A DNA stretch of 48,934 nucleotides from a virus (lineage: Duplodnaviria > Heunggongvirae > Uroviricota > Caudoviricetes): the IMG/VR virus record IMGVR_UViG_2531839665_000028; one strand, 5' to 3'. The notes under the pieces were generated by a model. The model worked only from the letters and a program-made list of their open reading frames with translations. It made no database searches and was not told the DNA's origin. The first letter of the stretch is position 1, and every line of letters begins with the position of its first letter. Positions 10,495-11,351 of the stretch are shown here, one piece after another. A program made the position numbers and the translations under genes.

Positions 10495-11351
10495 GTATGG
10501 AGCTGATGGTTAAAGCGATGAAAATTCGAGTGGGTAATCCATTGCGAAAACTGGTTCTGATCAAGCTGGCTGATAATGCCAGCGATCAGGGTGAGTGCTG
10601 GCCCAGCTACCAGCATATTGCTGACCAGTGCGAGATTAGCAAACGTTCTGTGATGAATCATATTGCGGCCCTTTGTGATTCCGGGCTGGTAAAAAAAGTC
10701 ACCCGGAAAGGTGAAAAAGGTAACTCAAGTAATATCTATCTCCTTCATCTTGATGGTGCAGGAGATTCACTAGGGAGTAGTGCAAATAATTCACTATCTG
10801 GTGCAGCAAATTCACCAGGTAGTGCAGGAGTTGCACCAGGTAGTGCAGGAGTTGCACTAGGTAGTGCAGGAGTTGCACCAGGGGGTAGTGCAGGAGATTC
10901 ACCCAGAACCAGTCACTCTTTTGAACCAGTCAAAGAACCAGTCAATGAACCAATAGCTGTTGGTGCATCTGCTGATGAGTCTGTGCGAGTTCGTTCAAAC
11001 CGACCGGAATACTCTCCAGAGTTTGAGCAGGCATGGCTGGCATATCCCAAACGTGCTGGTGGCAATTCAAAATCTGCAGCCTTCAAAGCCTGGAAAGCCC
11101 GTTTGAATGAGGGGGTAAACCCCGAAACCATGCTGGAAGGTGTGAAACGCTACGCGGGCTGGGTATCTGCGATGGGTAACAGCGGCACACAATTTGTGAA
11201 ACAGGCTGTCACGTTCTTTGGTCCGGATCGTCATTTCGAAGAATCCTGGGAAGTTCCTGCGGTATCTGTAGCCGGACGTGAGGACCCGTACTTCAAAGCC
11301 AGTTACGACAACGTGGACTACAGCCAGATCCCGGCAGGATTCAGGGGGTGA
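10491..11351 (+). CDS. Replication initiator-like protein (N-terminal HTH, low-complexity linker, C-terminal domain)
   Basis: ATG at 10491 with GGAGGTG RBS. N-terminal winged-helix/HTH (...SYQHIADQCEISKRSVMNHIAALCDSGLV...); the linker is encoded by 21-bp tandem repeats. Confidence 0.55.
   Translation: MSMELMVKAMKIRVGNPLRKLVLIKLADNASDQGECWPSYQHIADQCEISKRSVMNHIAALCDSGLVKKVTRKGEKGNSSNIYLLHLDGAGDSLGSSANNSLSGAANSPGSAGVAPGSAGVALGSAGVAPGGSAGDSPRTSHSFEPVKEPVNEPIAVGASADESVRVRSNRPEYSPEFEQAWLAYPKRAGGNSKSAAFKAWKARLNEGVNPETMLEGVKRYAGWVSAMGNSGTQFVKQAVTFFGPDRHFEESWEVPAVSVAGREDPYFKASYDNVDYSQIPAGFRG
10779..10900. repeat. 21-bp tandem repeats (GGTAGTGCAGGAGTTGCACCA, about 3 full copies plus partial) inside the replication gene; candidate origin iterons
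   Basis: Direct repeats visible in the DNA; in lambdoid phages the origin iterons lie inside the initiator gene linker. Confidence 0.45.

Follow-up and report, generated by a model that had tools for sequence, protein, structure and literature searches.

Does the tandem repeat in the middle of the replication initiator gene of the virus record IMGVR_UViG_2531839665_000028 (IMG/VR; 48,934 bases, all of which is called the window here) mark the place where this prophage begins its replication, or is it there for some other reason? A reading made from the sequence alone had noted about three copies of a 21-bp repeat with degenerate flanking copies at 10779–10900, and had taken them for origin iterons lying in the interdomain linker of the initiator, as in phage λ. 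The array is present, nonrandom and larger than this, with seven boxes, the first of which starts 23 nt before 10779, and by analogy with λ it is probably the iteron set of an origin of prophage replication that lies inside the gene of its own initiator. Its placement after the winged helix, in a segment predicted to be disordered, supports the linker claim, and the iteron claim is further backed by arrays in all relatives that share the N-terminal domain, by conservation of the box DNA regardless of orientation and reading frame, and by co-variation of the boxes with the recognition helix.

Palindromic boxes between the domains of the initiator

Tandem Repeats Finder (TRF) reports a period-21 repeat at 10813–10903 (4.2 copies, 90% matches, score 134); read directly, it has three near-identical copies of GGTAGTGCAGGAGTTGCAC[C/T]A at 10819–10881, translated as GSAGVAPGSAGVALGSAGVAPG, with more diverged units on their flanks. 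The whole array consists of seven 15-bp boxes of the motif GTGCANNNNNTKCAC (GTGCA-N5-TKCAC) on the + strand, which span 10756–10902 (147 bp) with start-to-start spacings of 24, 21, 21, 21, 21 and 24 bp (Table 1); the three central boxes (4–6) are perfect palindromes. The motif is absent elsewhere in the window (0.36 occurrences expected), and none of 100 shuffles (0/100) matched the observed count. The minus-strand open reading frame (ORF) 10699–10902 had been dismissed as a repeat artefact, and correctly so, as it lies wholly antisense within a well-supported gene and has no PHROG match.

The initiator, whose homologs start at the ATG at 10491 (MSMELMV...), matches Pfam HTH_36 (E 3e-11) and PHROG 270, “replication initiation protein” (E 1e-87). 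HTH_36 (PF13730) passes its gathering threshold (43.4 bits vs a cutoff of 25; 46.5 bits for the domain alone), the DnaD N-terminal domain (PF21984) scores 23.1–26.6 bits vs a Pfam cutoff of 27, and the C-terminal part of the protein matches the PHROGs “DnaD-like helicase loader” and “primosomal protein”; an NCBIfam search gave nothing above cutoff, and a sequence search of solved structures gave no match. AlphaFold2, with a 39-sequence alignment as input, models amino acids 1–90 as a winged helix (helix-helix-helix-helix-strand-strand) with a predicted local distance difference test (pLDDT) score of 80–93, leaves amino acids 91–171 unstructured (pLDDT below 50) and gives amino acids 172–240 as a helical domain (pLDDT 65–77). 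The boxes begin one codon past the winged helix, and the array (codons 89–138) and the element that follows it (codons 139–149) are predicted from this model to encode a disordered interdomain linker. Foldseek comparison with the PDB gave only generic winged-helix matches (E about 0.01–0.08), mostly to MarR/PadR/ArsR regulators and also to DnaD-N (2v79, E about 0.02) and the Orc1/Cdc6 winged-helix domain, so these matches do not tell initiators from regulators. The C-terminal domain alone is common to initiators that have a different N-terminal domain (67–73% identity) and, judged by such comparisons, is a separate module that is exchanged independently of the N-terminal domain.

Conservation of the boxes and of the element that follows them

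Arrays were compared in 14 phage loci, whose initiators share the N-terminal domain at 45–82% identity, and in 80 genomic loci from different species in many gammaproteobacterial genera, including Pseudomonas, Enterobacter, Xenorhabdus, Photorhabdus, Proteus, Providencia, Rahnella, Erwinia, Marinomonas, Shewanella, Aeromonas, Aliivibrio, Marinobacter and Microbulbifer, as well as one Cardiobacteriaceae genome. A repeat array, typically of four to eight boxes, lies directly after the winged helix in all 14 phage relatives and in the genomic loci examined; the sequence-only reading had staked its case on repeats in homologous initiator genes, and every N-terminal-domain relative examined has them at the same place. 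The encoded peptides are unrelated to one another (GAGDSLG, GGAGADR seven times in Stx2_EH2085, TPPVPPES, PSDRMSP, GIAGDG), whereas the DNA of every array follows one plan, inverted-repeat boxes of 5-N5-5 in series, with spacings of 21–24 bp throughout. With the conserved flanking T and C/A included, the extended site is a ∼19-bp palindrome, TAGTGCA-N5-TGCACYA.

The box is also indifferent to strand and frame. In Vibrio phage 236O40-1, box 1 of the window recurs as its exact reverse complement, GTGAATCTCCTGCAC, and is translated as VNLLH; Pseudomonas arrays have both orientations side by side; and in two Shewanella loci (L162 and L163) one box is read in two frames within one gene (AGT GAA TCT CCT GCA and GTG AAT CTC CTG CAC). 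In a set of 84 distinct arrays with 338 boxes, one frame accounts for 284 boxes and another for 54, and either side of a box may have GTGCA or GTGAA as its half-site. The arms of these 338 boxes and their immediate flanks carry 1.5–1.6 bits at third codon positions, and in the centre the first two codon positions carry only 0.2–0.4 bits, which is the reverse of coding constraint. Orientation, reading frame and codon-position pattern together exclude a purely protein-level explanation, and these comparisons show that selection acts on the box DNA and not on the peptide.

Across the compared arrays the box sequence co-varies with the recognition helix of the initiator. Helices of the form S[KR]RSV[MI]xH, found in many genera and in Aeromonas phage AsXd-1, go with GTGCA or GTGAA; two helices with Arg at helix position 8, SKRSVMRH (Erwinia, Izhakiella) and D[KR]RTAMRH (Vibrio, Aliivibrio), go with GTGAC and with GTGAC or GTGAT, respectively; TRTTAINH (Photorhabdus, Xenorhabdus) goes with GTGTA; and VSRSTVKSH (Stx2a_F403) with GGGCA. 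Boxes read by eye are of the GCAC(A)CCCCTGTGCC type for SKSAV[RK]xH (S135, RothC) and of the TGTAGGCC type for DRSTVRKH (Pseudomonas). The AsXd-1 protein, only 64% identical to that of the window and with the same helix, has retained GTGCA-N5-TKCAC. As a control, Stx2_14040 has a C-terminal domain that is 69% identical and an unrelated N-terminal domain, and its interdomain DNA has other palindromes (TTTCCCGAAA...); a different N-terminal domain with different repeats implies that the array travels with the N-terminal domain. That interdomain DNA (locus L085, 1318–1500) holds the palindromes TTTCCCGAAATGGGGAAACCCGTTTTCGGGAAA and CCTTCACCGCGG...CCGCGGTGAAGG, followed by about four tandem 12-mers, ACAGAGAATACT, which suggests a parallel origin design of boxes plus 12-mer repeats.

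The boxes are followed by a second conserved feature. After the last box the window reads CC AGAACCAGTCAC TCTTTT GAACCAGTCAAA GAACCAGTCAAT GAACCAATAG, with three exact copies of GAACCAGTCA that occur in the window only here (TRF gives a period of 12 at 10923–10952). The 33 nt at the start of this stretch are nearly identical in the relatives, their pattern being found in 71 of the 80 genomic loci with at most seven mismatches (usually 0–4), and in 61 of 75 arrays a gap of 3 nt separates the last box from the first GAACC. The element is common to phages of enterobacteria, Pseudomonas, Vibrio, Aeromonas, Shewanella, Marinomonas and other genera. Its synonymous sites were examined in 77 distinct sequences found by the peptide RTSHSFEPV (at most three substitutions) in loci of 37–62% GC; this protein-motif anchor removes the bias of an earlier, nucleotide-matched test, and both give the same result. 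Codon choice is almost fixed: Arg is AGA in 73/73, Thr ACC in 47/47, Ser AGT in 73/74, His CAC in 65/65, the next Ser TCT in 75/75, Glu GAA in 76/76, Pro CCA in 61/64 and Val GTC in 71/73, and the twelfth codon (Pro) is free (CCA 25, CCG 13, CCT 32). The mean share of the top codon is 0.93 in the element vs 0.52 in 41 conserved columns of the N-terminal domain (p 4e-5). Shewanella and Vibrio variants read CACCCAGAACCAGTCACT as HPEPVT and not as PRTSHS, and this change of frame indicates that the first copy in the element is conserved as DNA. The element is a clean case of a cis-acting DNA signal that overrides codon choice, in hosts of 37–62% GC.

Scanned for its pattern, IMG/VR yields at least 120 contigs with the element; the N-terminal domain is immediately upstream on the same strand in 115 of them, and the remaining five have less than 185 nt of upstream sequence. 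This distribution indicates that the element belongs to the putative origin module, whatever the iteron type or C-terminal domain. Phage mEp021 shows a weak likeness to it by eye, in a third frame, which fails a one-mismatch criterion and is not counted as evidence. No single-strand hairpin is predicted in the element (z about 0 on both strands), and on this ground the idea that it is a primosome-assembly site was rejected. Since its position matches that of the AT-rich tract of λ, the best guess is that DNA unwinds or the helicase enters there, or that a conserved partner acts on it. It is quite possible, if somewhat short of probable, that the element is a common “origin core” of these phages that replaces the AT-rich tract of λ-type origins. 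As such it could be where the DNA unwinds, where the helicase enters, or where a conserved partner acts; for the partner, one candidate is the first 45 residues of the initiator, which are invariant, and the other a host factor common to Gammaproteobacteria.

The array as a probable replication origin and other explanations

The sequence comparisons strongly support a λ-type design built on a nonhomologous winged-helix initiator, without the AT-rich tract or an adjacent loader gene. The λ origin lies within the central part of the O gene (PMC7466680), and in the λ record Phage_rep_O covers amino acids 22–115 of O and four annotated 18-bp palindromic iterons run from codon 117, spaced 20, 24 and 23 bp, with an A-rich, AT-rich tract after iteron 4. 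The λ O/oriλ group, which includes 933W and P27, likewise has inverted-repeat iterons (∼18–19 bp) in mid-gene right after the DNA-binding N-terminal domain; the seven boxes of the window lie between the winged helix and the C-terminal domain, and are ∼19-bp palindromes 21–24 bp apart. The N- and C-terminal domains of the λ protein are separate modules, as they are in the window initiator. Stx phages have six iterons rather than four, which adds 13 residues to O, and these iterons are required for replication (PMC7466680); here the seven-box allele is 14 residues longer than the five-box allele. On the other hand, the λ box sequences are unrelated to those of the window, no P-like loader gene follows the window initiator, and where λ has its AT-rich tract the window has the 43%-GC invariant element with its GAACCAGTCA repeats. 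No Phage_rep_O (PF04492) match was found with the N-terminal domain at E up to 1 or with the whole protein at 0.01 (λ O itself scores 5.7e-36), and homology to λ O was rejected, the best BLASTP match being E 0.023 over 22 residues. The initiator would appear to work like λ O, by analogy, without belonging to the Phage_rep_O family.

Iteron plasmids offer a second comparison. Their initiators (RepA, π, RepE) are also winged-helix proteins that bind in-phase repeats of ∼19–22 bp beside an unwinding region, and the number of repeats matters. In the plasmids the iterons form direct repeats to which monomers bind, and they are located outside the rep gene, as a rule together with DnaA boxes and an AT-rich element, whereas the sites in the window are palindromes within the gene and have no DnaA box nearby.

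That the N-terminal domain binds the boxes is inferred, with their co-variation with the recognition helix as the support, and so are the places where the origin fires and unwinds and the way the helicase is loaded. The initiator would be produced from the early rightward operon (cro-like, cII-like, Ash/Rha, small ORF, initiator), and its winged-helix domain would bind the palindromic boxes, probably as a dimer, on a site of ∼19 bp. Since the boxes are two helical turns apart, the bound proteins would lie on one face of the DNA, where they could form a complex like the λ O-some. This complex might then destabilize the flanking DNA, most likely the element with GAACCAGTCA repeats 3 nt past the last box, with the low-stability stretch upstream as the alternative. 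The C-terminal domain would recruit the helicase, and the host DnaB system is proposed because no loader or helicase gene adjoins the initiator.

In relatives the gene after the initiator encodes a DnaB-like helicase (V039C), a λ P-like protein (RothC), a primase/helicase (S135), a large “replication protein” (Stx2a_F403) or a helicase (Stx2_14040). The N-terminal domain is present in 29 records of the plasmid collection, mostly circular phage-like elements of 25–55 kb; ten of these are extrachromosomal elements of Arsenophonus nasoniae, one of which, pArsFIN11, was examined and has a gene for an ATP-binding protein next. A circular 44.6-kb Escherichia coli element has the gene order of the window and a five-box allele. 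The plasmid-like records and the downstream replication genes are consistent with a self-contained replicon, short of proof.

Several observations weigh against an origin at this site. The sequence-only reading looked for an AT-rich unwinding region just downstream, and there is none: GC is 43–45% at 10900–10979, duplex stability at the element is only ∼1 standard deviation below the window mean in a nearest-neighbour scan, and a conserved element that is not AT-rich lies there instead. The least stable stretch of the gene, just upstream of the array (Table 1), is a possible alternative unwinding site. There is no DnaA box near the array; the closest match to the consensus lies over 3 kb off, and the window total of four is what chance would give. 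No helicase or helicase-loader gene adjoins the initiator in this prophage, as judged by the window ORFs and their Pfam and PHROG matches. The boxes and the N-terminal domain are linked within 50 nt and the boxes lie less than 150 nt from the recognition helix, so co-inheritance contributes to the co-variation besides co-adaptation. Close relatives include alleles with one or two boxes, some on many contigs, and either few boxes suffice or these prophages are defective. The literature on this family yielded no binding, replication-assay or marker-frequency experiment. A search of the literature on Eru types, SfV/ST64B, HTH_36 iterons, replication modules, mEp021 and the box and element sequences themselves likewise found no description of this origin, although an earlier description is possible.

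The N-terminal domain might bind the boxes for a different purpose, as an operator or copy-control site that acts by autorepression, as an intragenic transcriptional roadblock or by handcuffing two genomes. Palindromes for a winged-helix dimer are typical of operators, the structural matches are mostly to regulators, and no AT-rich unwinding tract adjoins the array; plasmid iterons, moreover, act in both initiation and control. But four to eight in-phase sites within a coding region, at the place where λ has its origin, are not the layout of an operator, a sigma-70 promoter scan of 10200–11500 found no promoter-like site, replication genes directly follow in the relatives, and the invariant flanking element at a fixed distance suggests a composite origin. 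Control in place of initiation is thus unlikely, and the two roles are compatible and not mutually exclusive.

It is similarly improbable that the boxes, the element or both are bound by some other protein, be it a host factor or a phage regulator such as Rha/Ash or the PerC-like protein, or that the element is a recombination junction for exchange of the N- and C-terminal modules. In favour, the element is identical across phages with different boxes and C-terminal domains, it stays the same while the residues that set winged-helix specificity vary, and it lies exactly at the boundary of the module swaps. For the boxes, however, the type follows the initiator's own helix while the neighbouring genes differ among relatives. 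The element has no DnaA box, no convincing consensus for integration host factor (IHF) by eye and, as noted, no hairpin, and its perfect synonymous-site identity across hosts of such different GC content exceeds what a recombination junction would lead one to expect.

Finally, it is very improbable that the repeats are mere low-complexity Gly/Ser/Ala/Pro linker, driven by slippage and without a function of their own as DNA, for although the segment is predicted to be disordered, its copy number shifts by whole 21-nt units and linkers often evolve through slippage, the box occurs in both orientations and two frames with unrelated peptides, arm third positions are more conserved than the first and second positions of the centre, and every box is an inverted repeat in fixed 21–24-bp phasing whose palindromic plan stays while the peptide changes between lineages.

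Relatives of the module and other features of the window

The initiator gene is 98.6% identical in DNA to the gene for “replication protein O” of Stx2a_1447 and Stx2a_WGPS2. The “Eru6” region of Stx phages (Stx2a_WGPS2, AP012537; PMC8951638) is the same module, with a Rha-family gene and then an HTH_36 protein upstream of cI; the window has the Rha/Ash ORF 9122–10273 followed by the HTH_36 ORF 10491–11351, the latter with the identity just given to the AP012537 initiator. The Eru6 type was set by gene content alone, and iterons or an origin are not mentioned in that paper or its predecessor (PMC8951638). The Eru6 reference phages carry a five-box allele (819 bp), whereas the window gene has seven boxes (861 bp). 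Identity is 95–99% for Stx2a_1447, Stx2a_WGPS2, many Stx2c phages, mEp460, SfV and cdtI, and 89% for Salmonella ST64B. SfV orf39, ST64B sb42, mEp460, cdtI and the yfdO region of CPS-53 in E. coli K-12 are direct homologs (89–96% DNA identity), and this group shares the order initiator, PerC-like gene (yfdN), methyltransferase. No origin is annotated in the examined public records of these SfV-type homologs, where the gene is labeled “replication protein”, “primosomal protein I” or “helix-turn-helix domain-containing protein”.

The gene is at least 80% complete in 898 of 5,426 complete E. coli genomes and at least partly present in 2,718. Strains differ in copy number, as the sequence-only reading had supposed. 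Of 80 IMG/VR relatives, 74 have an array of 105 nt (five boxes), four one of 126 nt (six) and two one of 147 nt (seven), differences that amount to one or two extra copies of GTGCAGGAGTTGCAC. The close E. coli proteins range from one to nine boxes: one (242 aa), two (250 aa, 64 contigs), five (272 aa, a cluster of 2,852 sequences) and eight or nine (294–302 aa). The number of GAACCAGTCA copies is likewise variable among relatives. In the 75 arrays of GTG..CAC type that were counted, out of 92 distinct arrays examined, there are mostly four or five boxes, and the seven of the window are near the upper end. P0037, P0039 and P0027 are close E. coli relatives among which are alleles with one or two boxes, and in P0037 an in-frame deletion has removed the last box and the whole invariant element; such alleles may mark replication-defective prophages.

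A very common group of prophages (SfV, ST64B, mEp460, cdtI and the Stx2a/Stx2c “Eru6” phages) has this module as its replication unit. In Shiga-toxin phages replication sets the dosage of the toxin gene after induction, and with one to nine iterons by strain the array is a testable source of differences in phage yield and toxin output. For annotation, the origin would be placed between the winged helix and the GAACCAGTCA element in thousands of HTH_36 “helix-turn-helix domain-containing proteins”, and the box sequence would predict specificity and hence the incompatibility group.

Table 1. Positions of the initiator gene, its domains, the boxes and the adjoining features in the window
Feature	Position	Strand	Sequence	Basis or remark
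Replication initiator gene, 286 aa	10491–11351	+		ATG overlaps stop of upstream small ORF (ATGA); Pfam and PHROG matches
N-terminal winged-helix DNA-binding domain, aa 1–88	10491–10754	+		AlphaFold2, Foldseek, Pfam; recognition helix ∼I49–I58 (ISKRSVMNHI)
Antisense ORF, 67 aa	10699–10902	−		Repeat keeps frame open; not a gene; GTG start is CAC of last box
Least stable duplex stretch of gene	10705–10755			Among top 1–2% least stable 30–50-bp windows of the window; GC 40–42%
Box 1	10756–10770	+	GTGCAGGAGATTCAC	Exact motif match; kept in all close relatives
Box 2	10780–10794	+	GTGCAAATAATTCAC	Motif match and close relatives
Box 3	10801–10815	+	GTGCAGCAAATTCAC	Motif match and close relatives
Box 4	10822–10836	+	GTGCAGGAGTTGCAC	Perfect palindrome, motif on both strands; unit duplicated in this strain, single in five-box relatives
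Box 5	10843–10857	+	GTGCAGGAGTTGCAC	Extra copy; common five-box allele lacks it
Box 6	10864–10878	+	GTGCAGGAGTTGCAC	Extra copy; common five-box allele lacks it
Box 7	10888–10902	+	GTGCAGGAGATTCAC	Last box; 3 nt before first GAACC
Invariant element	10905–10937		AGAACCAGTCACTCTTTTGAACCAGTCAAAGAA (AGAACCAGTCACTCTTTTGAACCAGTCAAnGAA)	Nucleotide-level conservation across family
Direct repeats	10906, 10923, 10935 and 10947 (10906–10956)		GAACCAGTCA; degenerate GAACCAATAG at 10947	Encode (R)TSH..EPVKEPVNEP
C-terminal helical domain, ∼aa 172–286	11004–11348	+		PHROG matches, pLDDT; presumed helicase or primosome recruitment module

Upstream of the initiator the gene order is cI-like repressor, cro-like and cII-like genes, the Ash/Rha protein and a small ORF, and downstream it is a PerC-like gene, a Dam methylase, a LexA-like small ORF and RusA. 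The segment 11348–12495, directly after the initiator, holds the PerC-like/MarR-like gene (yfdN type) and the Dam-family N6-adenine methyltransferase, at the place where relatives with other C-terminal domains carry a gene for a helicase, a primase-helicase or a P-like protein. The ORF 9122–10273 (383 aa) combines an Ash-family segment (amino acids 117–213) with a Rha domain (amino acids 223–308) and begins with an N-terminal stretch of ∼100 amino acids without a match; in the related circular element L297 the Ash gene is separate and shorter.

Two further repeats lie elsewhere in the window. The segment 32482–33174 consists of 4.3 copies, 98% identical, of a 162-bp tandem repeat whose translation is PRDGRDYDPEVLKQAVNDAVANIPVPADGKSITPDDVRPMLEQMVKEAVSHIPA; ORFs 32257–32910 and 32855–33640 overlap here in different frames with the same repeat peptide in both, which indicates a gene interrupted by a frameshift inside the repeat. 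The gene may be a pseudogene, the assembly may be wrong, or the site may be a contingency site prone to slippage. A collagen-like Gly-X-Y ORF (47420–47851) is out of frame with an upstream Ala/Ser/Glu-rich, tail-fibre-like ORF (46671–47612), which it overlaps by ∼190 nt, suggesting that the reading frame of a repetitive structural gene is again shifted within 46671–47851, where TRF also reports a 45-bp repeat (47621–47711).

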